A stretch of 53,970 bases of DNA from Pyrinomonadaceae bacterium (GCA_035577445.1 DATLVM010000223.1:1-53970); one strand, 5' to 3'. Shown: positions 488 through 52,565, counted from the first letter of the stretch. Notes: generated from the sequence alone by a model not told the origin. Numbers and translations are program-made.

Positions 488-964
488 TTGCTCCACAGCA
501 ACCACACACGTTCTTTCCCTCTCTTTCTGTCGGCGCACAAGCCCATAGTCTCCGGTGGCGCCATCGCAGGGGATGACGAACTCATACTCATCAAAGCGAA
601 AAGACTTAAGATCCTGCTCATTGATGATCGGTCCGACTACAGGGCCGGCCTGAGTTTCATGTTAACGCAGAAGTATGAGGCTGAGGTTACCGATGTCGCT
701 TCCGGGTCGGAGGCAATCAAGAATCTTAGAGCAGGCAGAGTCTTCGACCTTATCTTTATAGACATTAGGATGTCGCCGATGAACGGCTTCGACACCTACT
801 TGAACCTAAGGACGATCGACCCGGAAGTCCCAATGGTTATGATGTCCGCTCACGCAGGAGATGAAGAACTTGAAAGGGCAGAGCGTTTGGGCGTTGAATT
901 ATTGCACAAACCGATACTCGACGAGACCATAACAGATCTGTTAATGCGAATAGAAAGCAGATAG
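488..964 (+). CDS. stand-alone response-regulator receiver (CheY-like) protein
   Basis: Motifs: LKILLIDDRS acidic pocket, FDLIFIDIRMSP phospho-acceptor Asp, VMMSAH, LHKP Lys. There is no output domain. No in-frame ATG precedes the domain, so the start is uncertain (TTG at 488 in the ORF track). The stop lies 2 nt before the next ATG. Confidence 0.8.
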   Translation: MLHSNHTRSFPLFLSAHKPIVSGGAIAGDDELILIKAKRLKILLIDDRSDYRAGLSFMLTQKYEAEVTDVASGSEAIKNLRAGRVFDLIFIDIRMSPMNGFDTYLNLRTIDPEVPMVMMSAHAGDEELERAERLGVELLHKPILDETITDLLMRIESR

Positions 965-966
965 CC

Positions 967-3900
967 ATGAGCAAAAAGATCCTCATAGTTGAAGATGACG
1001 TTAAATTCCGGGACGCGCTCATGCTGATTCTTGAGGACCGAGACTATACGTTCCTCGAAGCGTCTTCTGTCCGTGAGGCGCTTGAATTGATCAGAAGCAA
1101 CCCGGACGTACGGGTCGTGCTTCTGGATTTGAACCTACCTGGGAAATCTGGGACCGAACTCCTCCGGGAACTCAAAGGACAAAATCCCCAGCATAGAGTG
1201 ATCGTTTTAACCGCTCACGAAGAGTTGCTCGCCGCGGAGCAAGCTAAGTCCTACCAAGTCTTTTCATATGCCGCGAAGGCAGGGACCTCGTTGCGCCAGT
1301 CGCTGCGTTTCCAGATTGAGCGTGCTTTCGAAGATCTGGAGAAGGCTTGGCTTTCAAACAAAATAGGAGCACATCTTGAGATAGAAAGAAGGATAGTTTT
1401 ACTGGGTGTCGATAATCGCGAGAATGCTGAAGTCGAATTGGCTGAAGTCTTGAATCTGATATGCGCGCGCGCGTTGGAAATAGTTAACGCGTACACGTGT
1501 CATATCCGTCTCTTCGATCCAGGCAGGGGCGACTTCGTTCTCTGGGCGAGCGAGGGAAGAGATGGCAACGTGCAGGGAATCTTTCAGGAACGTGTACGTC
1601 ATAATGAGCCCTATTCTGGTATTGTCGCCGAGACGAGAAAACCTCTTCCTATAGACGACTTACAGAGTGATCCGCCTTTCAAGGCGATGCTTCAAGCTGC
1701 AATGGAGGGTGAGCCCGATCCGCAATATCTCGAATATTTGAGTAACGCGCGATCCGCCTACGTTGTACCGATTTCCACTGGCATCGTTGGCAACGACATT
1801 GACGCCGTTTTTAATATAAACAGCGAGGAAGAAGGTTTTTTCTTAACAGAAGCAACCCGTGATCTTGTTCACGACTTCGTCACGCAGACAACCCTCGCCT
1901 ACACAAAGTATTTGCTACGGAAGAGGCGAATCGAGATCCATACTGATTATAAGAACATCAGCGCGATGCTTGAGGAAGTGACTGATGTACTCAAGGGTGA
2001 CTACAACCTAAATGAGATATACAAGATAGTTCTGAAACGACTTTCGGATGGACTCAAGCCCGAGATCATCTCCATTTTTCTTTTTAACGAGCTCTCCGGC
2101 CGTTTGAAGAACGTCGCTGAATTTCGTGCTGACACATGGGCGGACAATGTAGAACAAGAGTACTCACCTGGCGAGGGTATGATTGGGCGAATTTACTCGA
2201 GCAGGCAACCGGACAGGTTTATTACCGCGCTTCGGCGACACGTCGATGCGGACGTAAACAAGGCACTGGAGGAAGAGAAAATTGGGAATATCCCTAGTGG
2301 TGATTTACGTCACTATCTCGGCGTACCAATGAAGATTGGCGATGTCATGATTGGAGTCATAAGGGCAATTAACAAAAGGTCCGACTATTACAGCGGGGAA
2401 CCTGAGAAAACCAGCAGCATTTGCCTTCTTAAGGGCGGTTTCAGCGATGACTGTCAACTTGAACTCGAAATGGCTGCGAGCCACCTCGCCGTCGCGATTA
2501 GGAACGCCGAGCTGTTTGCTCAGATTAATAAGAGAGTAAGCCGCCTCAAAGCGGTGGAAGAGGTCGGCAAAAGAATAGGCGCTGAGATGGACGCCCGAGC
2601 TCTGCAAAATATTATTGTCACCTCGGCCGCTGAGTTTTTGCATGCCGAGATCTGCATGCTTTTGTTAACAAACGAGTGGGAGGACGGGATCATCCTCAAA
2701 CAAAGCTATGGAATGCCAGTCACGGATGTCGAAGATATGCATTACGACATCGGCGAAGGCAAGACGGGGACGGTTGCAAAAACGTGGAGCCCAATTTTGG
2801 AGACAGAGGCTGAAGAGCATAGCGGCAAATATGATGACAGGATCATACGCTTTTTGCGGGACAAACATGGAAGTGAAACCGCTAACATAAGATCTTTTAT
2901 GGCTGTTCCCATAATCGGAGAAGGCCGTATTTTGGGCGTAATCAAAGTTATCAATAAGTTAGAGCCACCTTATCAGTTTGATGCTGACGACCTTGAGCTG
3001 TTTCAGATGTTCGCAAGCCAACTAGCGCTGGTAAGATTCCTCTACACGTCATATAGTTATCAGAAAAATATTGTCGACAATTCGCCCGACCCGATCATCT
3101 TTCTTGATAAGGAAGGTAGAGTTGAGGTTTTCAACAAAGCCTGTGAGCAACTCTGGGGATACCGTGCGGCGGAGGTGCTGGAACAATCTGTTGTTGGCCT
3201 GTATGTGTCTGCCGCGCAGGCGCGTAGAATAGGTAGGATGTTGTCAGAAAGCGCCGACCACCGCATTTACAATCTTGAGGAGGAAATCAAGACCAAAGAC
3301 GGGGAAATCATACCGGTGGCCCTGTCGGCCGCTTTCTTATTCGACGAGCGGGGTAATAAGACTGGTAGCATGGGTAACTTCAAGGATCTTCGAGAAATAA
3401 AGAAATTGCAGGATCAGGTGTTGAGAGCTCAAAGAGATGCGGTGGTAGGAAAGTTGGCGTCGACGATCGGGCATGACATCAAACATGATATCGGTGCGGC
3501 CTTGAACTATATTGGCCCGCTACTTCGTAAGTGTGATCCAAAGAAACAGCAGAGGCTTCACGAGATTTATGCGGACATAGACAAAACGCTCCGTGAAGCG
3601 ACTACCAAACTCAAGAACGTATTTGCCACGGTGCAACCTGAACCGCTCCTAAAAGAGACAACTTATGTTGGGCGAGTCTTTAATGAAGAAATAGTCGGCT
3701 CCATGCGCCGGCAAGCGAACGCGAAAGATATCGAGTTCATCCTTACGAGTCCAGACAACGAGCAAAAACTGTCTGTGGATATCAAGCAGATAGAGAATGT
3801 TCTTTGGAATCTATTTGATAATTCGATTGACGCTATTGATAAGAGGGCTTCAGGCCGTGATGGTAGTGAGAAAGGAAGAATAGAGGTTTCGGCCCAAGTC

Positions 3901-4128
3901 AAAGGCCATGCTCTAGAACTTTCGTGGAAAGATAATGGCTGCGGAATATCGAAAGATAAAATGCCCTTCATTTTTGTACCATTTTGGACTGACAAAAAGG
4001 ACGGCAACGGGGTGGGGTTGTACATACTGAAAAGCAACATCGAGAGCCACCTTGGGACCGTGTCGGTAGATTCAACGGCGGGGGAAGGGGCCACGTTCCT
4101 TGTCACTATCCCGATCGCGGAGGATTAA
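967..4128 (+). CDS. hybrid sensor histidine kinase: receiver + 3 GAF-like + PAS + HisKA + HATPase_c
   Basis: N-terminal REC (ILIVEDD, VVLLDLNLPG, VIVLTAH). Three GAF-like blocks (YSGIVAETRKP; GEGMIGRIYSSRQP..LGVPMKIGDVMIGVIRAINK; GEGKTGTVAKTW..MAVPIIGEGRILGVIKVINK). PAS (SPDPIIFLDKEGRVEVFNKACEQLWGY). H-box STIGHDIKHD. N/G boxes NLFDNSIDAI, DNGCGIS, GNGVGLYILK. Confidence 0.9.
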   Translation: MSKKILIVEDDVKFRDALMLILEDRDYTFLEASSVREALELIRSNPDVRVVLLDLNLPGKSGTELLRELKGQNPQHRVIVLTAHEELLAAEQAKSYQVFSYAAKAGTSLRQSLRFQIERAFEDLEKAWLSNKIGAHLEIERRIVLLGVDNRENAEVELAEVLNLICARALEIVNAYTCHIRLFDPGRGDFVLWASEGRDGNVQGIFQERVRHNEPYSGIVAETRKPLPIDDLQSDPPFKAMLQAAMEGEPDPQYLEYLSNARSAYVVPISTGIVGNDIDAVFNINSEEEGFFLTEATRDLVHDFVTQTTLAYTKYLLRKRRIEIHTDYKNISAMLEEVTDVLKGDYNLNEIYKIVLKRLSDGLKPEIISIFLFNELSGRLKNVAEFRADTWADNVEQEYSPGEGMIGRIYSSRQPDRFITALRRHVDADVNKALEEEKIGNIPSGDLRHYLGVPMKIGDVMIGVIRAINKRSDYYSGEPEKTSSICLLKGGFSDDCQLELEMAASHLAVAIRNAELFAQINKRVSRLKAVEEVGKRIGAEMDARALQNIIVTSAAEFLHAEICMLLLTNEWEDGIILKQSYGMPVTDVEDMHYDIGEGKTGTVAKTWSPILETEAEEHSGKYDDRIIRFLRDKHGSETANIRSFMAVPIIGEGRILGVIKVINKLEPPYQFDADDLELFQMFASQLALVRFLYTSYSYQKNIVDNSPDPIIFLDKEGRVEVFNKACEQLWGYRAAEVLEQSVVGLYVSAAQARRIGRMLSESADHRIYNLEEEIKTKDGEIIPVALSAAFLFDERGNKTGSMGNFKDLREIKKLQDQVLRAQRDAVVGKLASTIGHDIKHDIGAALNYIGPLLRKCDPKKQQRLHEIYADIDKTLREATTKLKNVFATVQPEPLLKETTYVGRVFNEEIVGSMRRQANAKDIEFILTSPDNEQKLSVDIKQIENVLWNLFDNSIDAIDKRASGRDGSEKGRIEVSAQVKGHALELSWKDNGCGISKDKMPFIFVPFWTDKKDGNGVGLYILKSNIESHLGTVSVDSTAGEGATFLVTIPIAED

Positions 4129-4174
4129 AGAACTTATGCGAACTTCGGCGCCTAGATTGAATAGGAGAGGAAAT

Positions 4175-4600
4175 ATGCGTCCTAGCAGTCTTTCGAAACC
4201 GCGTAGTGTCCAGATCGATACGGCCAACGCGATCAGAGCCAGGCACCTCAAGGTGATGATTGTTGACGATGAGGCCGTATGGAGACGATCCATGAGATTC
4301 AGACTCATGAGTCTTTATGATCTTGAAGTTAAGGATGTCGGCTCAGGTGACGAGGCCTTGCGGACAATCACTTCCGGCGAAAGATTTGACCTCATTTTCC
4401 TTGATCTTTCGATGCCCGAGATGAGTGGGACACAGGCCTTCGAGAGACTAAGAGATATCGATCCTAACTGTGCAGTAGTCATGATGTCAGCGTATTCGGA
4501 CGGCGAGGAATGGGCTAAGGCAAAACAGCTCAATGTACAAGTGCTTTCTAAGCCTATCATGGACGACGAGCTGGAGAAGGTACTTCTTGAGGTCCCCTAG
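4175..4600 (+). CDS. stand-alone response-regulator receiver (CheY-like) protein
   Basis: ATG at 4175 is preceded by AGGAGAGG. The ORF-track start at 4100 overlaps the kinase and lacks an RBS. Motifs: VMIVDDE, FDLIFLDLSMPE, VMMSAY, LSKP. Paralog of 488..964. Confidence 0.85.
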   Translation: MRPSSLSKPRSVQIDTANAIRARHLKVMIVDDEAVWRRSMRFRLMSLYDLEVKDVGSGDEALRTITSGERFDLIFLDLSMPEMSGTQAFERLRDIDPNCAVVMMSAYSDGEEWAKAKQLNVQVLSKPIMDDELEKVLLEVP

Positions 4601-4685
4601 CAAGTAAACTGACGCTATTTTAGCAACTTAACATTTTAATCTATACAAGCTCTTTTTCGTTTGCCCTGAAGTCTTTCGAGAAGCG

Positions 4686-6443
4686 ATGAAGCGACCCCTC
4701 ATCTTCTTGAGTTACAGCCATAAGGACGAGGTTGAAAAGGACAGGCTGCTGTCCCATGTTCGCGCTGCCCTACAACCCGATATCGCGAATATCTTTAGCG
4801 ACGACAGTCTGGGAGCAGGCGTCGATTGGCAGCAGAACATAGGCAACGCCATCGAGGAGGCGAAGGTGGCCATCCTTCTGGTCACAGCCGATTTCCTCAC
4901 CTCTAACTTTATTATACACACCGAGGTTAAGGCATTTCTTGAGCGTCGCGAGAAGGAAGGTTTGCGGGTTTTCCCTGTGATTGCCAAGGCATGTCCTTGG
5001 AAGAAAGTAGAGTGGCTTAAGGCAATGAACTTAAGGCCACGAAATGGCAGGCCCATCTGGGGCGACGCAGGAACGCATGTCGAAGAAGACCTAGCTGCGA
5101 TTGCAGAAGAAGTCGCTGACATCATCGAACAAGAAAGGATAGAGATAATCAAGCGAGAGAATCACGCAGACAGTTCAACGCAAAGCAAAACCGAGATTCA
5201 TATTGATAAACCTCAGCGACTACCCAGGATTCTATTGGTGGATGATAAAGCCCTTTTCCGCAGGTCCGTCGCATATAACTTGGAAGACCTTGTTACGGTA
5301 ATGGAAGCTGGTTCAGTCGCGGAAGCGATCAAGGTACTTGAGACTAATCAAGATGTGCGGCTCATCTTACTTGATTTGGAACTAGATCGAGGTGAGGACG
5401 GCACTATGGTGCTTGAACACATTAAAGATCGGGCTTCGGATTATCGGGTCATCGTCCTAACCGGGCATCATGAAAGGCTCGCAGCGGAGAAGGCGTCATC
5501 CTATAAGATATTTAGGTATCTCCCGAAGGCGCAAGACGATGCCCCGAGAGAGATTTTGCGGTTCAATGTCGAGGAGGCACTAACCGATCTAAAGCGCGGA
5601 ATTGCGCCGATGGAGCGGGCGTTCGGCGAAGAAACTGTAAAACTGTACCCCAGCCCTTTCATCCACCTTTTTCAGTATTTGAAAAGTGACATTCGGCCCG
5701 GCGAGGCACTCTCTGGCCAAAAAGCCATGCTGGAACTTTTGTTGAACTTCTCCGCTATAGCTTTGCTCTGCGACTACCTGTACGGGGACACAAGGGATAA
5801 TGAACTAGACGCCCAAATCCGGAAAAGACTTTACAAACCGTCTCTTGGTGACTGGTTCAATATCATTAATGAAATAGTGAAGCGGAAGAACTCTTTCAAT
5901 GACACGCTTTTTTTGAATTCATTTCTAATCTTCTATACAGGTAGAAACAAAAAGAACCTGAATGAGTTAATCAGTGTGAGAAACAAATACGTAGGCCACG
6001 GCTCGATGCAGAAGGACTTTGAAGCAGAGAAGGTGGTCAAGCAATGCGATGACCTTTTGGTGGGTTTGTTGCGTGATTATCAGATTATTACCGATTTCCT
6101 CATGTGTTATACGCTCAATGTTGAAAAGCTTAGAACTGGATACGTGTACAGCTTGAAAGAATGCACAGGAGCAAATCATCAATTACTAAACTCCAAGAGA
6201 AGCTTCAACTTTCTTCTGGACGCCCACGAAATGCATCTGGTGAACCTCAAGACAGAACATTACCAAAGCCTCCACCCTTTCATAATCCTGGAGAATTGTT
6301 CTGAGTGTAGGCAACCGGAAGTATTCTTTTATTCCAAATTTTCGAATGGACAATTGTATTATCTGAGTTATACATGTGGGCACTGGTTGATAAAGGAAGA
6401 GTCGGAGAAGGATTTCCTTCAATTGCTAAGAATGGATTCTTAG
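4686..6443 (+). CDS. TIR domain - receiver domain - uncharacterised C-terminal domain (HEPN-like R-x5-H motif, Cys/His cluster) protein
   Basis: N-terminal TIR_2-like region: IFLSYSHKDE ... AILLVTADFLTSNFIIHTEV, retaining the S-x2-F-x5-E glutamate position. Central REC: ILLVDDK, LILLDLELDRGEDG, VIVLTGH, YLPKA. C-terminus: SVRNKYVGHG and CSEC...YTCGHW. Confidence 0.8.
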   Translation: MKRPLIFLSYSHKDEVEKDRLLSHVRAALQPDIANIFSDDSLGAGVDWQQNIGNAIEEAKVAILLVTADFLTSNFIIHTEVKAFLERREKEGLRVFPVIAKACPWKKVEWLKAMNLRPRNGRPIWGDAGTHVEEDLAAIAEEVADIIEQERIEIIKRENHADSSTQSKTEIHIDKPQRLPRILLVDDKALFRRSVAYNLEDLVTVMEAGSVAEAIKVLETNQDVRLILLDLELDRGEDGTMVLEHIKDRASDYRVIVLTGHHERLAAEKASSYKIFRYLPKAQDDAPREILRFNVEEALTDLKRGIAPMERAFGEETVKLYPSPFIHLFQYLKSDIRPGEALSGQKAMLELLLNFSAIALLCDYLYGDTRDNELDAQIRKRLYKPSLGDWFNIINEIVKRKNSFNDTLFLNSFLIFYTGRNKKNLNELISVRNKYVGHGSMQKDFEAEKVVKQCDDLLVGLLRDYQIITDFLMCYTLNVEKLRTGYVYSLKECTGANHQLLNSKRSFNFLLDAHEMHLVNLKTEHYQSLHPFIILENCSECRQPEVFFYSKFSNGQLYYLSYTCGHWLIKEESEKDFLQLLRMDS

Positions 6444-6757
6444 AGGCGTTGCCTTGAAAGTCGTCTCGAAACCTAGCCGCGCTCGGTCAAGAAAGAACCA
6501 CATCCTACGACAGTTCTTCTCGAATGATGCATTCGGACGAGCAAAAGTAAACTTTCTTGTCTATGTTTGACCCCGGTGTTAATCTGAGCGCGTTTAGAAA
6601 CAACGACTGGCGCTTCGCCCACTCACATTTGTAAAGCCACTGGCGCGCCATCATGCCGTCAGATCCGAACTTTTTCAAAACAGGAGCGAACCATCTCCAG
6701 GATCGAGTAGTAGGTATGCCTAACGTGTCGCACTCGATACTTATTTGAACATTTTAG

Positions 6758-7705
6758 ATGTGCGCGGCCGGAGGACTTATGGAAATCATTCTTCGCGCCC
6801 TTCAAGAACTTTGGCGACTATTCTCCTCAAAAGTCTGGAAACCCTTCAGGGACACCTTTATCGGATCCATAGAGATGCTCTGGCTGGCGAAGTGTATGGC
6901 CTACGTTGTTTTGTGGAGTATGAAGCAAACAACTCGGCGCATTTTGGATGCCTCGGGAATCGTGCTTCTCTTTTCCAGCCTACATTTCATGCTTGAGTCT
7001 ATCTCTACTGTGTTCCACGCTGAGTTGTTCAGCGTCACGAAGACAGTAGGAGTCCAAGGAGCGGTCATATTTGTGGCAGGTTGGATGGTCTTCCATAACC
7101 TCAGAGAACTAAGGGCGCGCCGGCGAAAGTCCGTTGTCGTAACCAATCTGGCGATGTTGCTGCAAGAGTTAGGGGGCACAGACTTGGCGGTAGGAGATGC
7201 AAATGTCAGAGAGCAAAAGTTGAATAAATTTGTTACCAAAGCGTCCGTTGCATGTATGAGTAGTTTCGACAAGAAGCTTTGCGTTAAGATGAGTATAATG
7301 TTACCGAGCGACACTGACGGTAAGCTGCGAATCCGTTTCTATGCTGAAGACGCCGGCTACGATACGGATTTCGCATTGGCAAAAGGGGACGGTGCTGCCG
7401 GTAAAGCATATGAAAACAACCACGCCGTCTATGTCCCAGCCGTCAAACAGAGACAGGGTATTACAATATCGTTTCCTGTGAAAAAGTACGGTTTGGCGCC
7501 AAACGTATATTCTCAAGCGAAAGTGGAGCCCTATCAGTCAATTCTCAGCGTCCCTATTCCGACGTTGAATTCAGAAATCCATGACGTTCAGGGTATCTTA
7601 AACCTTGACTCAATCAAGAGAGACGCCTTTACAAGCAGTGATGTCGAGACTGCCCACGCCTTCGCCAGCGCCGTCGGTTTGGCGCTTGACATTCACAAAT
7701 CCTAA
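6758..7705 (+). CDS. membrane-anchored GAF-like domain protein
   Basis: Two to three hydrophobic N-terminal segments (MLWLAKCMAYVVLWSM, GIVLLFSSLHFMLESI, GAVIFVAGWMVFH). The C-terminal half has a GAF-like pattern (GAAGKAYENNHAVYVPAV ... ILSVPIP ... VQGILNLDS). An alternative ATG lies at 6779. Confidence 0.6.
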   Translation: MCAAGGLMEIILRALQELWRLFSSKVWKPFRDTFIGSIEMLWLAKCMAYVVLWSMKQTTRRILDASGIVLLFSSLHFMLESISTVFHAELFSVTKTVGVQGAVIFVAGWMVFHNLRELRARRRKSVVVTNLAMLLQELGGTDLAVGDANVREQKLNKFVTKASVACMSSFDKKLCVKMSIMLPSDTDGKLRIRFYAEDAGYDTDFALAKGDGAAGKAYENNHAVYVPAVKQRQGITISFPVKKYGLAPNVYSQAKVEPYQSILSVPIPTLNSEIHDVQGILNLDSIKRDAFTSSDVETAHAFASAVGLALDIHKS

Positions 7706-8041: not shown

Positions 8042-8080
8042 GACCCGCGCTGGTGATGTGTTCACCGCGCGGGTCGTTTT
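8042..8080 (+). terminator. rho-independent terminator
   Basis: Perfect 9-bp stem: GACCCGCGC (8042-8050) pairs with GCGCGGGTC (8067-8075). It is followed by GTTTT. Confidence 0.6.
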
Positions 8081-8434
8081 GATTCCCTACGACAATAGTC
8101 CCGTCGCGTCTACGCCAACCGCCCAATTTAGCCGCTTGAGTAGCGGTAACTATGATGGAAACCAGGGAAAAGTTCACCAACTATGAGAATCCAGAATCAA
8201 TAACTTTGAGAAAGTGCCCGTAAGTTGTTGTACCCTCGTCAACCAGATTTCAATAACTATGAGAACCTAGAAATAATAATGTCGGTTCTCAAAGTTAGTG
8301 ATATCCGCACCATAGTTAGAGATATCCTTCTCGTCGTTAGCGATTCCGTGGTGTTGAGTCGGCCAAAAAATTAATCTCAGCCGAGGTTTTTCGCAGACGT
8401 GCGGAAAGAAATCACGCAAGCCAGAAAGGAAACG

Positions 8435-16503: not shown

Positions 16504-18246
16504 CTAACTAGCGATCTGAATCGTTTCACCGGCGGCAGTAGCGACGCTGGATCCCAAGCGATGAAGCTGCGTTGCGTCGATCATGTTGAGGCCCTGGTCG
16601 CGCACGGTCTTGAATCCGGGGATGATGTCGTCAACGGGTGCGCGCATCACATCTCTGGTGCGCTTATGGCCGGTGTAATCGAGATAGAGATGCTTGCGCA
16701 TGAAGCGATCGGGCACGCCGGCAAACCGGTATAGCGGATACTTGATTCCGTTACCGAACAGCTTGCGGCCGAGCATGTAGTAGTAGATCGGCACGCCCAG
16801 AGAGAACTTCATGTTTGCGGTACCTCCACCGTGCCAGAAATGTAAGTTGTACTTCCAGCAAGTGTAGAAGAATTCCCACTGAAGATCCGTCATCTCGATC
16901 AACTTCGCGCTGTCCTTCTGCTGCATGCGCGTGTCTTCGAGAGGCACGAAGAACGTGGGCACGAATGTGCCCTTGGCGTCGCGTAGATCGTAGAGCAGCT
17001 TCAGCGATTCTTTCGTGTCGGCTTCGGTTTCGCCCGGCAGGCCGATGATGAAGGTGCAGAATGGGAACCAGTTGTGCTTATTGAGAATCTCCATTCCCTT
17101 GAGCACGACGTCGCGCCATTGATGCGCCTTGTACGGATAAGCCTTGCCCTTCATGAAGATGTCGAAGAGGCGCGAACTGCCCGTTTCCAATCCGATAATC
17201 GGATCGGTGATGCAGTGATTCGCGTCGGTGGATTCCTTGTGCTTGACGTGAGAGAAGGGAACGATTAACGGCGTCAGTCTCTCAACGATAGTCGGATCCT
17301 TCACCACGGGCGCCATCGTGATGTGCGACATCTGCAACGTGTTGATTCCGGGCACGCTCTTCACACTGCGCAACATCGTTTCGAGCGCGGGCACGTTGGT
17401 CTCAAAGTTCGCCCTCTGCTCGTAAAGGAACATGTCCTCACTTGCGAGCATTATTTCGGTTGCGCCTTCACGGGCATTCACGCGAGCGCTTTCGAGGATG
17501 TGTTCGAGCGGGAATGAACGGCCAACCTTGGTTGCTGGGCCGCAGAACTGGCAACCGCGACCACAGCCGCGCGTGATTTCGACGACGCCGAATGTCGAGC
17601 GATGGCGCACGACGGGAATCTCTTCGACCGTCGGCTGCATGCTCTTCGGAAGTTTGATGATGCGCTCCAGCGTTGGATCGCCGTCCATCATGCGCTTAAA
17701 CAATTCGCTGAAGACGCGCTCGATCTCACCGTCGATTAGATAGTCGACGTTGAATTCATCGAGCCGGTTCGCGCGCTCCAGTTGCCAGGCGCCGGGTCCG
17801 CCGATCACGATCTTCGGCCGATATTTCTTGATGACGGGATGCGTGACGATCTTCAGAAATTCCGCAGCGTTGACGGGAATCAGGTTCTTGCCGGCGATCT
17901 TTGAATAAACATCCGTCGCATACGAGATGCCCAGCGGATTGTGGGCGTGAATAGCAATGACTTTCGTTTCCGGCCCGACGAATCTTTCCAGATACTCGTG
18001 ATAACAAACCACGACGTCTTCTTCCGCATACTCGCGCAGCAGCAGCGTCTCGACCATGCGCAGTCCGTTGGGGACATACTTGGCCCGACCATCCGGCCAG
18101 GATTCATTCTTGAGCGACTCTTCAGGTATCCACCGCGCGCCGAACTTAGCGGGAATCGTCGCCGAGAGCATCTGTTGCCAGATGCTGTGGCGCCACTCGC
18201 TCGCCTCGCTAGAGGATGCGGTTAAGACGATTTTCGGTGAACCCAA
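16504..18246 (-). CDS. radical SAM protein with N-terminal B12-binding-like domain
   Basis: C-x3-C-x2-C cluster (GCGRGCQFC). TTG start at 18246 lies 8 nt after GGAGG. Confidence 0.8.
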   Translation of the reverse strand: MGSPKIVLTASSSEASEWRHSIWQQMLSATIPAKFGARWIPEESLKNESWPDGRAKYVPNGLRMVETLLLREYAEEDVVVCYHEYLERFVGPETKVIAIHAHNPLGISYATDVYSKIAGKNLIPVNAAEFLKIVTHPVIKKYRPKIVIGGPGAWQLERANRLDEFNVDYLIDGEIERVFSELFKRMMDGDPTLERIIKLPKSMQPTVEEIPVVRHRSTFGVVEITRGCGRGCQFCGPATKVGRSFPLEHILESARVNAREGATEIMLASEDMFLYEQRANFETNVPALETMLRSVKSVPGINTLQMSHITMAPVVKDPTIVERLTPLIVPFSHVKHKESTDANHCITDPIIGLETGSSRLFDIFMKGKAYPYKAHQWRDVVLKGMEILNKHNWFPFCTFIIGLPGETEADTKESLKLLYDLRDAKGTFVPTFFVPLEDTRMQQKDSAKLIEMTDLQWEFFYTCWKYNLHFWHGGGTANMKFSLGVPIYYYMLGRKLFGNGIKYPLYRFAGVPDRFMRKHLYLDYTGHKRTRDVMRAPVDDIIPGFKTVRDQGLNMIDATQLHRLGSSVATAAGETIQIAS

Positions 18247-44904: not shown

Positions 44905-44918
44905 GGCGGTAGATAATA

Positions 44919-44938
44919 CTGAATGAGTATTCATTCAG
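44919..44938. promoter_or_regulatory. palindromic operator-like site CTGAATGA-GTAT-TCATTCAG upstream of fadN
   Basis: Perfect 8-bp arms with a 4-bp spacer, 15-34 nt upstream of the preferred fadN ATG. Confidence 0.6.
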
Positions 44939-44976
44939 CAAGCTTCGCAACGGTTTTTCTCAGTCAACTCCGACGC

Positions 44977-45040
44977 TGTGGGTTCGGTCATAAAGTGAGA
45001 TTGGTAGGTCATAAAGTGAAATCCTTCTGTCATAAAGTGG
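44977..45040. repeat. transposon end A: three phased copies of the GGTCATAAAGTGA motif
   Basis: TCATAAAGTG starts at 44988, 45009 and 45030, an exact 21-bp phasing. A degenerate copy (TCATAATG) lies at 45063. Confidence 0.8.
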
Positions 45041-45178
45041 TGCGGAGAAATAGGGGTTTGATTCATAATGCTGCTACTCAAACCTAATAGCTTCCACCAT
45101 AAGACTCCGCGCATAAAGAGGCTGGAGAAAGACGAGCACTAACGACATTGGGTCGGAATCATTGCTATCAGAAATTAG

Positions 45179-45207
45179 TTGACTGCCGGCATAGATTGGA
45201 ATATTTT
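45179..45207 (+). promoter_or_regulatory. sigma-70-like promoter candidate for the cargo operon
   Basis: TTGACT (45179-45184), a 17-nt spacer, then TATTTT (45202-45207). It lies about 210 nt upstream of the first cargo ATG. Confidence 0.4.
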
Positions 45208-45415
45208 CTTATCCGCATTTACCAACAGGCTGGTCCTCAGAGCCTACCCCTTTTATGGCGTTCTCTTCAGTACTAGCCTCTTACTAAGCCAATCAGGCTG
45301 GTTTGGCCACCAGTTTCCCAATTTCTAATTCTAAAATGGCAAGGGGAATTAGAATCACGCGATCGAAAATAGGCTGGAAAAGCTCGGTTCCAATCAGGAA
45401 GGGATAAATTGAAAC

Positions 45416-46603
45416 ATGTCAACACCTCACATGCTTTCTACTAACTTATATCTGTCTAACACGGCCAATGTACTTTCAGCCGGCCAACAACTGCGAGACA
45501 TGTTGGGCGAAGATGTCGAGACGCTGGATTACGCAGTGACACGTTTGGAAGAAGCCTCCAGAAATCAGGAAGATGGGGCGACTAAGTATCGTGCGTTCAT
45601 GTTCGCTGAGCTGGAGACGAGCGGAGCTGTGCAAAAAGAGAGGCGAGAAAGGATAACTGAAGATGTATTTGCCAGTGTACTGACGGATCTGCAAATAGCG
45701 AACGTGTTAATGGCAGCGGGAAATGCCGTAGGAGAGACTAATGGCGACTCAAGGCCTCAATTGCTTGACGAAGCTTTGAACGATTTGGATGAGACGACTC
45801 CGGTGATTCAAAGAGGTCTATCCAGTCCACTGGCCAAAGGGTCAGAGCCAGGTCGTTTCAACTTTTCAGGAACTTCTGCTCAACCAACTGTTTTCACATC
45901 AGCCGACGTAGCCTCTGCCGTTCAAACCTTTCAGAAAACTTCCTATGAGACTCTGGATAAGCTTGTCGGCGGTGTCCATGAGGTAGCCCTTGGCGTTTTC
46001 GACGCCTTACAACGGCTTGGTCCGCAAGAAATATTAGAAGCGCTGAACCAATTGGGAGGACCCGTGCAAACCTTCACCGGCATGATACGTCGGTTGATTA
46101 ATCAGGGAATCCAGAAGATGAAACAAGCCCTTGACGATTTGGTCCGCCTGATAGGCAACGATGCGATCGCGAAACTGAGAGACAAGATCAAAGAATTGTG
46201 GAAAGACAGAGAGCAGGGAATAATCGATAAGCTTCTAGCCAAGATTGTCGGCGTTGAGAACACGCGTGCCAGTATTACAACCATCTTGAGTCTCGAGGGG
46301 ATTGACAGGGACACTGCGGATCGCGGCAGCAACGATCTGTCACAACTCTTGATTCCGTACAGGAACAATGTGGAAATGGCAAAAAAAGCTGTGAAAGCGA
46401 TCAGCTTTGGCAGCAGCGTGCTAATCTTGACGCCAATTGCCGGTCATCATATAGCGCTATTTGCGGCTTCCTCTTATCTGATAATCCTAACGGCTGTCAT
46501 TCTGATTGCAATGGACTATGCCGACTCAGGGGGCATTCTTCAGCGCGTTCGCGGGGTAGGCGAGATTGCCGAGGGCCTCCGAGCACACGGGACCGTCCAA
46601 TAA
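45416..46603 (+). CDS. hypothetical helical protein with C-terminal two-helix membrane anchor (cargo gene A)
   Basis: RBS AGGAAGGG. 395 aa, predicted largely helical from composition. The C-terminus contains AISFGSSVLILTPIAGHHIALF and SSYLIILTAVILIAMDY. No signal peptide. Confidence 0.7.
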   Translation: MSTPHMLSTNLYLSNTANVLSAGQQLRDMLGEDVETLDYAVTRLEEASRNQEDGATKYRAFMFAELETSGAVQKERRERITEDVFASVLTDLQIANVLMAAGNAVGETNGDSRPQLLDEALNDLDETTPVIQRGLSSPLAKGSEPGRFNFSGTSAQPTVFTSADVASAVQTFQKTSYETLDKLVGGVHEVALGVFDALQRLGPQEILEALNQLGGPVQTFTGMIRRLINQGIQKMKQALDDLVRLIGNDAIAKLRDKIKELWKDREQGIIDKLLAKIVGVENTRASITTILSLEGIDRDTADRGSNDLSQLLIPYRNNVEMAKKAVKAISFGSSVLILTPIAGHHIALFAASSYLIILTAVILIAMDYADSGGILQRVRGVGEIAEGLRAHGTVQ

Positions 46604-46645
46604 TCCGGGAATTATAGGCAAGCCACCACTTGGTAAGGACGAACA

Positions 46646-47842
46646 ATGTCGGGTTTAGAGCGTACCGCTTTGGATGAAAAATCCCTCATATTAGTACATG
46701 TGCGTGCCCTGCTTGAGCAACTCGATTGGGCCGAGTCTTCATTGCGCACCACTGGTATCGAGCCTCGGATAATGGAGGCCGCGAGAGTTGGTTTTGCCGT
46801 CTTATTTAAGCAGAGGCGAAATGAGCTGACGCGTATGCAAGCCTCAATCGCTAAAGGCGCGATACAGGCCGACGCCTGGAAGCAATTGCGAACCTTCAGG
46901 CGTTCATGCGCAGAGCTCTTCAAGGAGTGTCTTGAGTTTCTGGGGGGCGCCATGCTCCGTGCCGCGCATAAAAAAGATGACATTTGCGAAATTGCGGACG
47001 CCCTATTAATTGAATTAAGTCGCAATACCCCGATTCAGTGGAAAGGCGTCACGCTGTTGGCCGAGGCCAATTTTTTTACCGAGACGACGGGGCTGATACG
47101 TTTACCGTTTCCCGATTACGGTATCTGGAACTTGCCGATTGCGGTCCATGAGCTCGGACATTTCATTGGACCTCGGATTCCCGATGGAATGGGCGGCTTT
47201 CCATTCCAAGCGCTTCAACAAAATGTCCCGGCTAGCCTCTCAGTCAAAGGCGTGGAACAGGAAAAATCTCATTTGCGGGAACTCTTTTCTGATCTGTTTG
47301 CGACGTATGCCCTGGGCCCTGCCTATGCTTGTTCTTGTATCCTACTGCGTTTCGATCCTCAAGATGCCACGGCTTGCGAGGACAGCGAAACACATCCCAG
47401 CCATGCCAAACGCGTCCATTTCATTCTTAAAGCGCTTGACCAGATGAGTAAAACTACTGAGGGATGGCCTTATGCGAACATGATCGACCACCTGCAAGCT
47501 CTTTGGGATCGGATTCTGACACGCGCCGGGCACGAAAAATGTCTCGACGAAAAAAAGATTCCGCCTCTTAACTACCAGTTGTTTGAACTCTACCCGATAC
47601 TCGCCAAATTTGTGCCGACAGTTCAATACGACGGTTGGGACCGCGCCGTTGCACTGAGTAACGAACTGTCGCTTGGCCGGAAACCGGCGGCGCTCCTGCA
47701 AGCTGAGGATACAATCGCTGACGTGCTTAATGCCGCCTGGTTATGGCGGCTGCGACAAAATGTTGAGAACAGCAACACTGTGCATCAGGTGAATCTTGAA
47801 GCTATTGCCCTGTGTCGCGAGGTCATCGGCGTCGGCCGATGA
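46646..47842 (+). CDS. HExxH zinc-metallopeptidase-like protein (cargo gene B)
   Basis: LPIAVHELGHFIG is followed 40 residues later by RELFSDLFATYALGPAY, a candidate third-ligand Glu and gluzincin-like helix. RBS AAGGACG. Confidence 0.7.
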   Translation: MSGLERTALDEKSLILVHVRALLEQLDWAESSLRTTGIEPRIMEAARVGFAVLFKQRRNELTRMQASIAKGAIQADAWKQLRTFRRSCAELFKECLEFLGGAMLRAAHKKDDICEIADALLIELSRNTPIQWKGVTLLAEANFFTETTGLIRLPFPDYGIWNLPIAVHELGHFIGPRIPDGMGGFPFQALQQNVPASLSVKGVEQEKSHLRELFSDLFATYALGPAYACSCILLRFDPQDATACEDSETHPSHAKRVHFILKALDQMSKTTEGWPYANMIDHLQALWDRILTRAGHEKCLDEKKIPPLNYQLFELYPILAKFVPTVQYDGWDRAVALSNELSLGRKPAALLQAEDTIADVLNAAWLWRLRQNVENSNTVHQVNLEAIALCREVIGVGR

Positions 47843-47921
47843 CCATGAACTCTTGACTCCTGATAAGACTGCTTATCAGGTTCACAAGAGTTCGCGCCGA
47901 AGTGAACAAGGAGAATGTGAT

Positions 47922-49229
47922 ATGGACCTCATCATTAAAATACGATTAGAGGCACTGAAAAATAACTTAACCAAGATCCGCCAGATCTTAGAATCGGTGA
48001 AGGGCCGGCGATACGAGATCGATGAGTTGAGCAACGGTCTAACCCTTTCCCAGGAAAAGCTTGACTTGGTGGGGGAAAACGTCACGAACGTTTTGAATAC
48101 ATCACGAAACACATTCGCCAGGAAGCAAATAGATGAAGGTCTCACGCGGCTGTTGGAAGTCGCCGAAGAAAAGGCAATTAGTCTCCGTCAAGACTTAGAG
48201 AAGACCAAGGAAGCCATTAAGGCGATACAGACTCGATGGACGCTGATAGAAGAAGGATTTGAAGCTAAAGTTAAGGAAGATCTAGATGACAAGATTGGCT
48301 CATGGTTTAACGAAATCGACGATGACATCAAGGCGCTCAGCGGCGCCCCATCCAGCGTATTGAATAAGCAAATTGAAAAAGCCTGGGGCGACTATAACAA
48401 AATCATGTCGCAGCAGAGCCAACTTGTTTTCTCTAACTATGTGGAATTTCTTGGCGGGCTAGCGTTGCGCGGCGCTGGCCTTGATGAAGGAATCTGCCGG
48501 ATAGCCGATGAGCTAATGCGAAGTTGCGGCTCATTTGGAACAACCCATTGGTCGGCGCTGACCATTCCGGCGAGTCAAGAAGCCATGACGCTGGCGCGCA
48601 GCATTCGCGTGCGATTTCCGGAGTGGACCATATGGGCCGTTCCGCTTACGGCCCACGAATTAGGACAGGTCGTGATAAGAGGCAACTCTAAACTTGAAAG
48701 TTACATTAATATGCAATACCCGGCTCGCACTAAGAAAACCATGAAGAAGGCCATGAAAGGCCAACAGCATATGCGCATCTATTTGGCGGATGCTTTTGCC
48801 ACTTATGTGATGGGGCCTGCCTATGCCTGCTCCGTAATCCTGCTTCGATTCAATCCCCTGTCAGACAATCAAGACAGCGACTATCCCGCAGATGCCAAAC
48901 GAGCACACGTTGTATTAAGTACGTTGAAGAAGATGGGGAGCGATCCGCTTATTGGCACGCCCTACGAGGATATTGTCGATAAATTGAAAATCGAATGGGA
49001 TGCTGCCCTCGCTCAGGCACAAACCCAAGCCCCCGCGACTTGGGACGAAGACGTAATGCTCCTCGATGGATGGATTGATCGTTTATTGGAAGAACTAAGC
49101 ACGACCTATCCCAACAGCCTATATCAGGGCGGACTGTGGAAGAGCACGCGAGAGGCCTTGAAGCTTCTTCTTAAGGGCGAAGACCCCGGAGGTAAATTGA
49201 AAGGGCGCGAAGATTGGGGGACGTGCTGA
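47922..49229 (+). CDS. coiled-coil + degenerate (HELGQ) zincin-like paralog of gene B (cargo gene C, main frame)
   Basis: ATG 47922 lies after AAGGAGA. It aligns with gene B through EFLGG, ICxIAD, IWxxPxxxHELG, FATYxxGPAYACSxILLRF and AKRxHxxL. It has HELGQ instead of HELGH and RIYLAD instead of RELFSD. The frame ends at TGA 49227-49229 just after a G5 run. Confidence 0.7.
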   Translation: MDLIIKIRLEALKNNLTKIRQILESVKGRRYEIDELSNGLTLSQEKLDLVGENVTNVLNTSRNTFARKQIDEGLTRLLEVAEEKAISLRQDLEKTKEAIKAIQTRWTLIEEGFEAKVKEDLDDKIGSWFNEIDDDIKALSGAPSSVLNKQIEKAWGDYNKIMSQQSQLVFSNYVEFLGGLALRGAGLDEGICRIADELMRSCGSFGTTHWSALTIPASQEAMTLARSIRVRFPEWTIWAVPLTAHELGQVVIRGNSKLESYINMQYPARTKKTMKKAMKGQQHMRIYLADAFATYVMGPAYACSVILLRFNPLSDNQDSDYPADAKRAHVVLSTLKKMGSDPLIGTPYEDIVDKLKIEWDAALAQAQTQAPATWDEDVMLLDGWIDRLLEELSTTYPNSLYQGGLWKSTREALKLLLKGEDPGGKLKGREDWGTC

Positions 49230-49408
49230 ACGCAGCCTGGGCCTGTCGGGTTGATAACGTGGACGAGTCCCTGAAGATTGCTAAGAACGCCGAAGAACTG
49301 TGGCGCCAGATTGAAAAGAAAAAGAGTGAGACTCCAGAGCGTCAGGTCTCCTCATCTGGATATCCAGCAAACAGAGTTCCCCGCATTCAAGCGGACAAGA
49401 AGTCATGA
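49214..49408 (+). CDS. C-terminal segment of cargo gene C in the -1 frame
   Basis: GDVLNAAWACRVDN aligns with ADVLNAAWLWRLRQN near the C-terminus of gene B. Its stop overlaps the ATG of the TPR gene (ATGA at 49405-49408). Confidence 0.6.
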   Translation: MGDVLNAAWACRVDNVDESLKIAKNAEELWRQIEKKKSETPERQVSSSGYPANRVPRIQADKKS

Positions 49409-51795
49409 CAACCAAAAACTCGCGAAGTCGACATTCGAACGCCACCGGCCTGCCGCTGACTAATCTGGAAAGCAGATTTGATCTGGCCCCAGCCGTGCGC
49501 TTGCCCAGTCCCGATTCTTTCGCGCCATACCGATCGGATCTTAACCGGGCTTTGAGCGAATATAATCTGGCAAACTTTGACGAAGCCAAGTTAATCCTTA
49601 GCAAGCTGTCGTCAGGTCTAAAACAGATCCTGGACACTAAAGTCAAAGACAGTGGGCAAGCTCATTTGTTATACGCCTCGACATTGACTGCTCTAGGTCG
49701 GACTTGCGAACGATTGGGCCAGGAAAAAGGCGCCACCAGCGCCTTCGAAAAAGCAGCGGCGGAGTTCAAAAAGTGGATTTCCGAAGCAGAAGAACCCGCC
49801 GATCAGTTGTATTCAGATTACGGCGTAGCCCTTTTTAAGATTGCGCGCCCAAGGTTAACCATTCAAGTTTTTCGCGAGGTTCTCAAGCGAGGGACTCTTA
49901 ACGCTGAGAGCAATCGTTATATGGGCATCTGCCTGGGTCGACTAGGCAAATACAAGGAGGCCGAGGAGCGTTTTAGCGAAGCTCTCAAACAAGATCCGGA
50001 TCACTACATGACGCATAAGGCCCTGGGTGAGATGCTTGCAAAGCAGGGCAAGATTCATGAAGCAGTGGTCGAATACCACGCCACAGTTCTTTATATGGTC
50101 GACTCCGGATTGGCGGATGAGGCTCTCGATATTTTGGAACACATCCTGAAGTTGACAAAGCGGGATTCGCAATACCTCGCGCTCAAGGGAGAGATTTTAC
50201 GTAGTAAGGGCGATTTAAAGGGCGCGTTCAGAGCCTTAAATCAGAGTCTCAAGCGCCAGCCAAAAAATGCATTTGCCAGCGCCGTAAAGGGCTTGGTGTT
50301 GTTAGCGTTGAATAAGAATGAGGAGGGCGTTCGCCTTCTGGAGAAAGCCCTTAGGTTGGACTCGACCCTCGACTGGGTGCCCCTGGAATTGGCTAACGCT
50401 CAATATAGGATGAGACGTTACAAAAGGGCTCTGTCCGCTTTGAATCAGGCTCTGGCTAGAGACCCTGGCAATGTGAGCGCGTTGTCTCATAAGGCAGAAA
50501 CCCTAAATGCTATGGGTCGAAACACCGAAGCCCTCCTGGTTTTGGACGAAGCCCTCAAACTCAAACCAGACGCACTCCTCCTGGGGTTAAAAGGACGAGT
50601 GCTACGCCACTTGAATCGCTACGAGAAAGCCCTCAAGGTCCTGCGAGCGTCGATAAATCTTGACGCTCGTGTTGCCTGGGTTCATGCAGAGTTAGGCGCC
50701 GTTCTTTATGCTCTTGGCCAAAACGAAGAAGCGCTCCAAGCGGTGATTGACGGCCTCGCAATTCAGCCAGATAACGTCTTTGCCTTAAGTTACAAGGGTG
50801 AGATCCTCCGAGCGCTCGAAAAAAGCGAGGAGGCGCTGCAAGTCATGAATCAAACCCTGGCATTGTCTCCCCACGATCCCTGGGCACTCGGCACTAAAGG
50901 CCAAGCGCTTCGCGATGTGGGGCGGGCCGGAGAAGCTATTGACGTCCTGCAACAGTCAATCGAACTTGACCCGACATTAGCGTGGGTACACTTAGAACTA
51001 AGCGCAGCGCATTATGGTCTGGGCCACTACCGGTCCGCCTTGGAATCGCTAGACAAGGCGTTGCGACTCCAGAATGATAGCGATTGGTACCTCTTCAAAG
51101 CTCACATCCTCTGTGAGGTCGCCGAGTTCAAGGCTGCGGTCAAGGCCCTGCACCGCGCAATCCAAATTAATAGGAATGTCGCAGAGGCGTTCGGCCTTTT
51201 GGGATGGGCCTTACAACATCTCGGAGTCAAGCAGGCAAGAAACACATTACAGGCTTATGAATCTGCCGTAAACCTGGAGCCGGATAACTTATGGTGGCAT
51301 AAAGGCGTCGCCAACAGTCTCTACCTAATGGGCAACCAAAAGGGAGCTGCCGCCAAATACAGATGGGTCGTGGAGCAAGCTAGAAGGCGGGCTAAAAAAG
51401 AAAATGCTGAGGCAAAATTTCTGTCGCTGGTCGCTTGGTGCCAATATCGTCTCGGGAAGTGCGAACAGGCCGTACAACTATTCAGTGAGGTTATTTCGCT
51501 CGATCCGCAGCAGTTTGCCAGCCAATTCGATTTAGCTTTGTCTCTGATTTGTTGCGGACGTTATAGTGAAGCGTTGCGCGAGTATAACCGCGGAGTAAGA
51601 GCCTCGATGGAATTACCCGCACTACGGTGTCGCAGCCTGACCTTTGTGGCTTTGTACGACCTCAACATAGCCGTGAGAATGCACCGTCAGTTAGCAGAGG
51701 TAGAAGAGTTAAATGAAGCCCGAGCTCTGCTCGAAACTACCTACAAGCAATCATCGGAACTTGGCGCTCTGAGCCAGACTGTAGCTCCGGAATAG
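49405..51795 (+). CDS. large TPR-repeat protein (cargo gene D)
   Basis: 796 aa. There are more than 15 consecutive 34-aa TPR-like units with the pattern A-x3-L-x2-AL-x-L-x-P-x3-A/W repeated throughout. Confidence 0.85.
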   Translation: MTTKNSRSRHSNATGLPLTNLESRFDLAPAVRLPSPDSFAPYRSDLNRALSEYNLANFDEAKLILSKLSSGLKQILDTKVKDSGQAHLLYASTLTALGRTCERLGQEKGATSAFEKAAAEFKKWISEAEEPADQLYSDYGVALFKIARPRLTIQVFREVLKRGTLNAESNRYMGICLGRLGKYKEAEERFSEALKQDPDHYMTHKALGEMLAKQGKIHEAVVEYHATVLYMVDSGLADEALDILEHILKLTKRDSQYLALKGEILRSKGDLKGAFRALNQSLKRQPKNAFASAVKGLVLLALNKNEEGVRLLEKALRLDSTLDWVPLELANAQYRMRRYKRALSALNQALARDPGNVSALSHKAETLNAMGRNTEALLVLDEALKLKPDALLLGLKGRVLRHLNRYEKALKVLRASINLDARVAWVHAELGAVLYALGQNEEALQAVIDGLAIQPDNVFALSYKGEILRALEKSEEALQVMNQTLALSPHDPWALGTKGQALRDVGRAGEAIDVLQQSIELDPTLAWVHLELSAAHYGLGHYRSALESLDKALRLQNDSDWYLFKAHILCEVAEFKAAVKALHRAIQINRNVAEAFGLLGWALQHLGVKQARNTLQAYESAVNLEPDNLWWHKGVANSLYLMGNQKGAAAKYRWVVEQARRRAKKENAEAKFLSLVAWCQYRLGKCEQAVQLFSEVISLDPQQFASQFDLALSLICCGRYSEALREYNRGVRASMELPALRCRSLTFVALYDLNIAVRMHRQLAEVEELNEARALLETTYKQSSELGALSQTVAPE

Positions 51796-51991
51796 GCAAT
51801 GCTAGCCGCCTGCGACTCTTCCAAGGTGCCTTCGTTCGAATACCTGCGCTGAAACCAGGTAGGCGATCTGTCGTTAGCCGGTCGCGAAAGTTAGGAGTGA
51901 CGAAAACTCAAGACGGCAAGGGGCAAAAAGGCTCTGAACAAATTCATAGCAAAATAAAACTGCCTCCCCGGAGGCGGACATAGGAAACTTT

Positions 51992-52120
51992 CAACTTATG
52001 CCCGAAAACTGTAGGAAATTTTCACGTTATGCCCGACTTTATTTTCACTTAATGACCGAATCGCGCCTATAAGTCGTTGATACCACGTAGAAGCTATTTC
52101 ACTTAATCACCGAACCCACA
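51992..52120. repeat. transposon end B: four copies of the inverted subterminal motif
   Basis: The reverse-complement motif occurs as CAACTTATGC (51992), CACGTTATGC (52023), CACTTAATGA (52046) and CACTTAATCA (52100). Each is followed by CCGA(A/C). Confidence 0.8.
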
Positions 52121-52565
52121 GACGCCGCCGATGCGCAAGCTTCTTACGTCGTGCAACAACAATCGGGAGCAACTAGATCGAAAACGCCACGAAGCCGCCA
52201 AGATTAGAAAATAGAAGAGCGAAAGTATCCAGCCTGTAGACGACCGGCCCAAGACCCCAGGATTCTCCGCGACCGTCTTTGCCTTTGCTCAAGGCACTCA
52301 ACGAAAATTGCGCCGAGCGAACCCGCCAGATTTTTTTCTCAACAACTAAACCTTTCCGCAGCAACACCCACTTATAGCGATGTCTGGAGAAGACAAGCGA
52401 CCTATTCAAGGGGAAAACCTGAAACCCATCGATTGTCGCTCGCGCTACGCCAAAAAAAATGAATTACCAGCGGTTAAATACTCATGGCGGCTATCGCTTA
52501 TTACGGATGCGGCGGTAACACAAAACGCCTTGTTAAAGCGTCCATTCAGCTAAAGGAGATCAACC

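Follow-up and report, generated by a model that had tools for sequence, protein, structure and literature searches.

The stretch of DNA analyzed here (the window) comprises all 53,970 nucleotides of a sequence from a Pyrinomonadaceae bacterium (GCA_035577445.1 DATLVM010000223.1:1-53970), and between positions 45416 and 51795 it carries four genes, here called A to D, that fill a Tn7-like element (44977–52120; 7,144 bp) with Tn7-type ends and a perfect 5-bp target duplication. All four open reading frames (ORFs) are co-directional on the + strand: gene A at 45416–46603, gene B at 46646–47842, gene C with its main frame at 47922–49229, and gene D at 49405–51795. Together they constitute a self-contained, horizontally mobile module, the core of which consists of an active-type gluzincin (B), a dead paralog of it (C) and a protein made of tetratricopeptide repeats (TPR; D), with A as the usual partner. 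The initial annotation of this DNA, made from sequence alone, had described four co-directional and tightly packed genes separated by gaps of 42 and 79 nt. The packing is confirmed, and both gaps follow if C starts at the ATG at 47922, which is preceded by an AAGGAG ribosome-binding site and is the most likely start; the longest ORF of C opens at a TTG at 47796. The remaining ORFs within the element are all shorter than 140 aa and overlap genes A–D.

Gene B encodes a 398-aa protein that is an active-type gluzincin by motif, with HELGH at residues 168–172 and conserved residues H168, E169, H172, E212, D216, H250, P251 and R256. HE[FL]GH, D216, H250, P251 and R256 are found in 42/42 relatives, and position 212 is a glutamate in 41 of them and an aspartate in one. 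The earlier description of B as an HExxH zincin-like protein is therefore upheld by an intact HE[FL]GH and an acidic third ligand throughout. The third ligand lies 40 positions past HExxH, within the motif E-x-F-[AS]-D, an arrangement that we take to be that of a thermolysin-type gluzincin of clan MA(E). In peptidases of this type, the HExxH helix follows a small beta-sheet, the glutamate sits in a helix bearing E-x-x-[AS]-D (NEAISD in thermolysin), and a histidine lies downstream. B shares the HExxH helix after a sheet, the motif of the glutamate helix and the conserved downstream histidine. In its AlphaFold model (predicted local distance difference test [pLDDT] 94.9, predicted template modeling score [pTM] 0.92), the strands span residues 136–154, the HExxH helix 164–177 and the glutamate helix 200–223. 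B differs from the thermolysin type in its HExxH–Glu spacing of 40 and in large, helical N- and C-terminal regions found only in the B family, and neither sequence searches nor Foldseek matched it to a known peptidase family. Profile and sequence searches of PDB sequences with B returned nothing significant, with CapP (7t5t) at E 0.49; overall, such searches yielded only this match and weak coiled-coil matches. The superfamily itself is large. An indexed search recovered 161 homologs of B, and an exhaustive search recovered 2,502 representatives at E ≤ 1e-3 and 1,052 at E ≤ 1e-30, none of which is named or carries a Pfam domain.

Gene C is a paralog of B, to which it is 35% identical over 214 aa (E 8e-34), and carries a coiled-coil extension of ~150 aa at its N-terminus. 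As the initial annotation had it, its active site is degenerate; it reads HELGQ and has an isoleucine at the third-ligand position. Among 42 relatives of C, the three zinc ligands are kept in 22, 11 and 2, respectively, and the structural residues D216, R256, N362 and W365 are kept; C is, to judge from these residues, a conserved pseudo-protease. Natural fusions of 760–880 aa join a dead zincin half (e.g., HELGL) to a live half (HEFGH) that follows it (P0216, P0248, P0257 and about ten more; also loci L034 and L037). The existence of such dead–live fusions argues for a physical pairing of B and C.

The window copy of C departs from that of its relatives near the 3′ end. Its main frame stops at 49229, 175 nt short of D, and the conserved C-terminal helix (GDVLNAAWACR...) sits in another frame, in an ORF at 49214–49408 (+). 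This displaced part alone overlaps the ATG of D, by 4 nt (its stop codon). Thus, the 4-nt overlap initially assigned to C and D stands for the displaced ORF and for the relatives, and does not hold for the main frame of C. A run of G near 49216–49220 reads GGGGG in the window versus GGGGGG in L001 and L197, and because these relatives carry six residues where the window has five, C is frameshifted by a 1-nt homopolymer deletion. The first description had implied an intact C and overlooked this frameshift, which is either a real mutation or a homopolymer/assembly error. In the closest relatives (L196 and L197 included), C is intact at 495–496 aa and overlaps D by 4 nt. In the window, the frameshift would remove both the conserved helix of C and its translational coupling to D, and the module may be impaired if the mutation is real.

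The constant company of a live and a dead paralog, always adjacent and sometimes fused, would also be expected of a toxin–antidote (addiction) module in which B is a toxic protease that is inhibited stoichiometrically by C, with D as a chaperone or stabilizer, the whole serving to stabilize the carrier DNA. Tight gene overlaps, carriage on a mobile element and the toxin–antidote pairs often found nearby fit such a module as well. However, an addiction module would not typically comprise four large genes totaling more than 6 kb, and dead–live fusions cannot be regulated by differential stability. In addition, the would-be antidote C is frameshifted in the window and the motif of B is intact, a combination that this model predicts to be lethal, except if the frameshift stems from a sequencing error or the truncated C is still functional. 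An addiction module is therefore considered improbable.

Gene D encodes a 796-aa protein that consists of TPR repeats end to end, in agreement with its first description as a TPR protein. Its Pfam matches to TPR families reach an E-value of 6.6e-52, and its full-length relatives range in length from 659 to ~1,500 aa. A non-TPR domain at the N-terminus was considered and rejected, as the N-terminus matches D's own internal TPR repeats.

Gene A encodes a 395-aa, cytoplasmic, all-helical protein with no signal peptide and a C-terminal hydrophobic hairpin or anchor (~326–366). The two-helix anchor proposed initially is present, with a strong hydrophobic helix at ~346–366 and a weaker one before it at ~326–339; two hydrophobic segments are usually detected in relatives. 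The tail contains an invariant motif (D367, Y368, D370 and G380). The AlphaFold model is all-helical (pLDDT 88.8, pTM 0.90) and has no Foldseek match in PDB or BFVD. A has no NCBIfam match, and its sole Pfam match, to Sds3 at E 0.098, is non-significant. An identity with PspA/IM30 was rejected, with no support from Pfam, NCBIfam or Foldseek; the JGI name "phage shock protein A" on the homolog P0159 is likewise unsupported. In cassettes that lack A, the gene just upstream of B varies between loci. For instance, it encodes a metzincin-like HELGHxxGxxHE protein in L013 (9106–9966), a protein with a DUF559/Vsr-like domain in L010 (8688–9527) and a small protein with three transmembrane segments in L028 (3321–3851). 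These variable genes may reflect effector swapping or may be coincidental neighbors.

Beyond the window, contig look-ups and a genome scan (one genome per species) recovered the order A-B-C-TPR in loci down to ~25–35% identity. The cassette is found in Acidobacteriota, Chloroflexota, Verrucomicrobiota, Planctomycetota, Actinomycetota, Methylovulum miyakonense and a deltaproteobacterium, about seven bacterial phyla in all, and in one metagenome-assembled genome of Methanothrix. The same gene order in dozens of loci across phyla confirms the initial view of a self-contained, conserved module. B, C and the TPR gene occur together on the fetched DNA in 35/45 loci, and most of the others are contigs that break off. 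A homolog of A is missing from about one-third of cassettes, so the invariant core is B-C-D. Each of the four genes is under purifying selection (dN/dS 0.16–0.27). No two genomes have the same genes flanking the cassette. In L195, it is enclosed by 220-bp direct repeats (8073–8292 and 17070–17289; 91–94% identical); these repeats correspond to the 5′ end of an enoyl-CoA hydratase gene, and the scar is unlike the Tn7-like one. The window C is 90% identical to that of L197 and 65% identical to that of L196, and window A and B are 81% and 77% identical to those of L196 and 71% and 67% identical to those of L197. Such mosaic identities suggest recombination between cassette variants.

The element that carries the cassette in the window is bounded by two copies of GACGC (44972–44976 and 52121–52125; 5 bp each, unstranded), the left and right target-site duplications. 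Its terminal inverted repeat has 26-nt arms (44976–45001 and 52096–52121) that are 88% complementary and end in a TGT...ACA-type terminus, TGTGGGTTCGG. The two ends are built differently. The compact end, similar to the right end of Tn7 (44977–45039, +; terminus TGTGGGTTCGGTCATAAAGTGA), has three repeats at 21-nt spacing, and the dispersed end, similar to the left end of Tn7 (51981–52120, −; ending in ...TCACTTAATCACCGAACCCACA), has four repeats with spacings of 31, 23 and 54 nt. Both layouts recur in metagenome loci. The subterminal repeat GGTCATWAAGTGA occurs four times in the window, each time at one of the element's two ends, versus 0.06 copies expected; the subterminal repeats are putative transposase-binding sites. 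Tn7 has the same TGT...ACA termini starting with TGTGGG, the same asymmetric subterminal repeats of ~20 bp and the same compact and dispersed sides, and Tn7-like elements share the 5-bp duplication, the insertion at a fixed distance and tandem copies 5 bp apart. Pfam scans of 36 ORFs in the window (all but two of the non-nested ORFs of at least 150 aa, plus two short ORFs right of the element) revealed no transposase domain, and no tnsA, tnsB, tnsC, tniQ or target selector genes were found in the element by Pfam scans. The element is non-autonomous, because it is without genes for a TnsB-type transposase, TnsA, TnsC or a target selector. It is Tn7-like on the basis of its end anatomy, target duplication and targeting behavior, there being no transposase by which to classify it.

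The initial annotation had presented the operon as the sole cargo of a transposon and as AT-richer than the core. With inverted repeats, a 5-bp duplication and only genes A–D inside the element, the former is confirmed; so is the latter, as the G+C content is 0.47–0.52 within the element (~0.50 over genes A–D) versus 0.54–0.58 in the adjoining core. Association with mobile elements in general stood in part: the cassette lies inside Tn7-like ends in the window and in L197, both at the same fadB site, but these two are the only such cassettes. The nucleotide identity between L197 and the window is 78.5%, and the left terminus of L197 reads TATGGG as a result of decay. That the cassette is generally transposon-borne was rejected, as no flanking inverted repeats were found in 37 other loci. 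Ahead of gene A, a leader block (45179–45290, +) with a sigma70-like site, TTGACT-17-TATTTT (45179–45207), is common to the two transposon-borne copies in the window and L197 and is absent from the other 196 fetched loci. The site is a putative promoter, and the block has no RNA-structure signal and no Rfam match.

The element is inserted next to a FadB-like gene. Outside its compact end lies an attachment-site motif, ATAATACTGAATGA-N4-TCATTCAGCAAG (44913–44942, unstranded), that is palindromic and overlaps the start codon of the FadB-like gene (44932–44934, minus strand). In the window, the element ends 34 nt from this motif, and the insertion point is ~42 nt upstream of the fadB-like ATG, on the promoter side of a beta-oxidation operon. 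When metagenomes were scanned with the 22-nt terminus of the element, at least 119 loci with the same ends (L074–L192) emerged. Such ends are abundant in soil metagenomes; among the matches listed (at least 119), a FadB-like gene lies just beyond the element end in 20 loci. The distance from motif to end is 28–40 nt in 25 loci including the window and 32–35 nt in 22/25, with a mode of 33–34, and the sequence between the two is unconserved in these 25 loci. Insertion is thus site-specific, at a fixed distance from a conserved host sequence. Unlike in Tn7-like elements, the site is at the 5′ end and promoter side of the fadB-like gene and not downstream of the 3′ end of a conserved gene. Where elements are stacked in tandem (L004, L115 and L123), exactly 5 bp separates the abutting ends.

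Other members of this family carry different cargo. The complete elements in L100 (5444–11080; 5.6 kb) and L122 (135–7039; 6.9 kb) occupy the same site with unrelated cargo, and no tns genes were found in either one or within 11 kb inside the end in L089 (3629–14782), so that the lack of tnsA, tnsB, tnsC and tniQ, a difference from Tn7-like elements, is shared. The 25 families listed for 71 interior ORFs of same-end elements contain TPR, NACHT-C, TIR, caspase, CHAT and kinase domains and no transposase family. Varied cargo, in every case without transposase genes, was seen in L100, L122, L089, L004 (20830–21100), L115, L123 and L134; examples from same-end elements include a Fer4 protein, an oxidoreductase, an SDR-PEMT fusion, an extracytoplasmic function (ECF) sigma factor with a kinase-TPR protein, and a helix-turn-helix (HTH) protein with an M78 protein. 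Directly inside the compact end of nine elements (L085:12718–13923, L089:3712–4917, L094, L093, L145 and L181 among these) lies a gene for a conserved protein of ~400 aa, which has a sub-threshold Pfam match to DUF3854 (Toprim-like) and no PDB relative. An autonomous partner (helper) of the element family was not found in the sampled data. With many of its members being cargo-only, this Tn7-like family offers a natural system for studying cargo elements mobilized in trans and adds a new attachment site.

The operon points into the element from the compact end, the side on which Tn7 has its tns genes. As no transposase is recognizable, genes A–D might be thought to work for the transposon, by taking part in its transposition, its choice of target or its regulation, and to stand in for tnsABCD. 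Such a role is essentially refuted because the cassette and the ends occur apart: the cassette is present in ~40 loci without such ends, and the 119 listed same-end loci are without the cassette. Moreover, the elements in L100 and L122 carry unrelated cargo and have no tns genes either, and Pfam and NCBIfam scans detected no DDE, AAA+ or DNA-binding motifs in proteins A–D. A function in transposition is accordingly hardly credible.

A second family of zincins places relatives of B in a different setting. The weakest tblastn matches of B in the genome scan belong to a distinct family of ~377-aa zincins (L046–L073), the nearest outgroup of B, that aligns with B over 251 columns (hhalign probability 98.8%, E 8.7e-17) and shares with it the motifs HExxH, ExFxDLFATYxLGPAY, HPxxxR and LLNxAW. 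These zincins, from Bacteroidota, Latescibacterota, Planctomycetota, Chloroflexota and others, are encoded in 28 loci in a conserved operon, in which genes for an HTH protein, a PD-(D/E)XK nuclease, an 800-aa protein and a 120–145-aa protein precede, in that order, the zincin gene, and two small ORFs follow it. In L071 (5220–11116), PADLOC identifies the 800-aa protein as a prokaryotic Argonaute (pAgo_II, E=0) and the nuclease as Aga_Cas4-like_Nuc (6.7e-116); the small gene there encodes 143 aa. A pAgo homolog is present in 24/28 loci and the nuclease in 22/28. The pAgo/Cas4-family systems (pAgo-ACE) are experimentally supported immune systems (PMC12094033), and a peptidase partner of pAgo is mentioned neither in that work nor in the 2018 pAgo census (PMC12094033; PMC6299218). 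The pAgo-associated zincin resembles B in its motifs, homology and similar size, but its operon contains a single zincin, with HTH, PD-(D/E)XK nuclease and pAgo partners and without a dead paralog, a TPR protein or an A-like gene. The link to pAgo operons is guilt by association at the superfamily level, a hint of a role in conflict. This homology also suggests that the zincin is an overlooked component of those Argonaute systems, and it provides a second, independent experimental entry point.

Several known systems resemble the cassette in part. ImmA/IrrE (M78) and CapP are also cytoplasmic HExxH protease switches in mobile-element, CBASS or defense contexts, and CapP (7t5t) has a weak local similarity to B around HExxH. 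However, B has no match to Peptidase_M78 (PF06114) at E ≤ 1, no HTH gene is present in the cassette, and B is much larger than ImmA/IrrE and CapP and has a dead paralog and a TPR partner. The logic of bacterial gasdermin–protease systems is alike, with a protease (in many cases a fusion with TPR or other repeats) encoded beside a membrane-active effector that it activates. In contrast, A is all-helical and not a gasdermin, the protease here is a zincin and not caspase- or trypsin-like, the TPR protein is separate, and cleavage is only proposed. The initial annotation had found no described counterpart and had called for PADLOC and Foldseek searches. No catalogued defense system matched A–D significantly in PADLOC, the AlphaFold models of A and B had no structural match in Foldseek, and the cassette and its A, B and C families had no described counterpart in the databases (Pfam, NCBIfam, PADLOC and PDB sequences), the Foldseek searches or the papers searched. 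The four-gene system is apparently undescribed and shows the defining features of no known defense system; B's chemistry, that of a zincin, is not in itself new.

The module is tentatively read as a system of the conflict or abortive-infection type, a reading to which we give somewhat less than an even chance. The cargo of Tn7-like elements is reported to be rich in defense genes (Benler et al., 2021; PMC8649781), and that of the same-end sister elements includes TIR, caspase, CHAT, NACHT-C and kinase-TPR genes, which hints at a conflict role. Mechanistically, B would join C in a hetero-pair, with the dead subunit holding or positioning the live one. The solenoid of D would serve as the scaffold or sensor, and once a trigger protein or peptide had bound to it, the proteolytic activity of B would be released. 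B might then cut A, possibly at a conserved loop (PGRFNF, at residues ~145–150) or in the tail (DYxDSG...RGVGEI), after which the hydrophobic hairpin of A would damage the membrane. Where a cassette has no A, the substrates of B would be other proteins of the cell or of an invader. The cell would stop growing or die, an outcome of the abortive-infection or conflict type. A broader proposal, which is judged slightly less likely still, is that the B-C-D core, usually with A, represents an unrecognized but widespread protease-based immune or conflict system. Its TPR solenoid would sense invader proteins and license the live–dead zincin pair, the zincin fold would represent a new defense-associated enzyme family that also serves as an unnoticed accessory of pAgo/Cas4-nuclease operons, and cargo-only Tn7-like mini-elements would shuttle such systems to a dedicated chromosomal site.

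Several observations weigh against an immune role or against parts of the mechanism. PADLOC matched no catalogued defense family to A–D and for D returned only generic TPR models; in PADLOC-DB v2, A matched only PD-T7-4, non-significantly (16 bits, E 0.0012). B and C have no PADLOC match at E ≤ 1 and no Pfam or NCBIfam match, and Foldseek found no PDB match for B at E<0.001, a search in which known zincins were likewise not recovered. The protease activity of B is predicted from motif conservation together with the modeled strand-helix-helix layout, and we infer the cleavage of A, the pairing of B with C and the sensing by D. A homolog of A was found in 29/45 loci and was undetectable in 16/45, with a second profile round adding none. 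A is therefore not a universal effector, and the membrane-effector role assigned to it initially was not borne out, as about one-third of cassettes do without it. The cassette was in none of the 119 other same-end loci among the matches listed, and relatives of B were found neither in 2.9 million viral contigs (IMG/VR) nor in PLSDB plasmids. Finally, about half of 12 annotated contexts are housekeeping neighborhoods (L001, L194, L196, L198 and L200).

Such neighborhoods favor a non-immune alternative, in which the cassette is a module for regulated proteolysis or stress signaling at the inner face of the membrane, for example in the turnover of membrane-anchored regulators or in envelope or nutrient-stress signaling, that spread horizontally as an accessory trait and was captured once by a transposon by chance. 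Many of its contexts are housekeeping or regulatory ones: a TonB receptor and TonB adjoin it in L001, a histidine kinase and a sigma54 activator lie directly upstream in L193, ECF sigma factors are found in L194, and GGDEF proteins and BlaI/BlaR in L198. Purifying selection on all four genes, the lack of defense profile matches and the absence of the cassette from the 119 listed sister transposons are in keeping with this alternative too. Conversely, its distribution is patchy over distant phyla and one archaeon, its insertion point is different in each genome, and no metabolic or regulatory neighbor is conserved. The first gene is variable or absent, and the repeat number of D varies widely. 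A sister zincin family resides in pAgo operons, and the cassette can ride a mobile element. A non-immune module is thus judged unlikely, though it is to be taken seriously. As for the siting of the cassette, toxin–antidote, insertion sequence or NACHT genes are near it in L003, L004, L193, L195 and L197, a further hint of a conflict role. The initial annotation had called for a test of the four-gene neighborhood and its link to defense islands; the gene order recurs, but siting in defense islands was supported in part, with only about half of the 12 contexts island-like.

If the reading of A–D as an immune or conflict system is correct, they would add a family that is unusual in three respects: its central enzyme is a metalloprotease, this enzyme is paired with a pseudo-enzyme, and the TPR part is a giant protein of its own. 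A and B have confidently predicted folds without a solved relative. The question is directly testable in cultured hosts of the cassette, namely Methylovulum miyakonense HT12, Asanoa siamensis NBRC 107932 and Nonomuraea sp. NBC_01738.

Elsewhere in the window, a block of lower G+C content (0.45–0.50) at 488–7705 contains a run of signaling proteins. It encodes receiver domains, a 1,053-aa REC-GAF-PAS histidine kinase, a TIR-receiver fusion (4686–6443) and a GAF protein.

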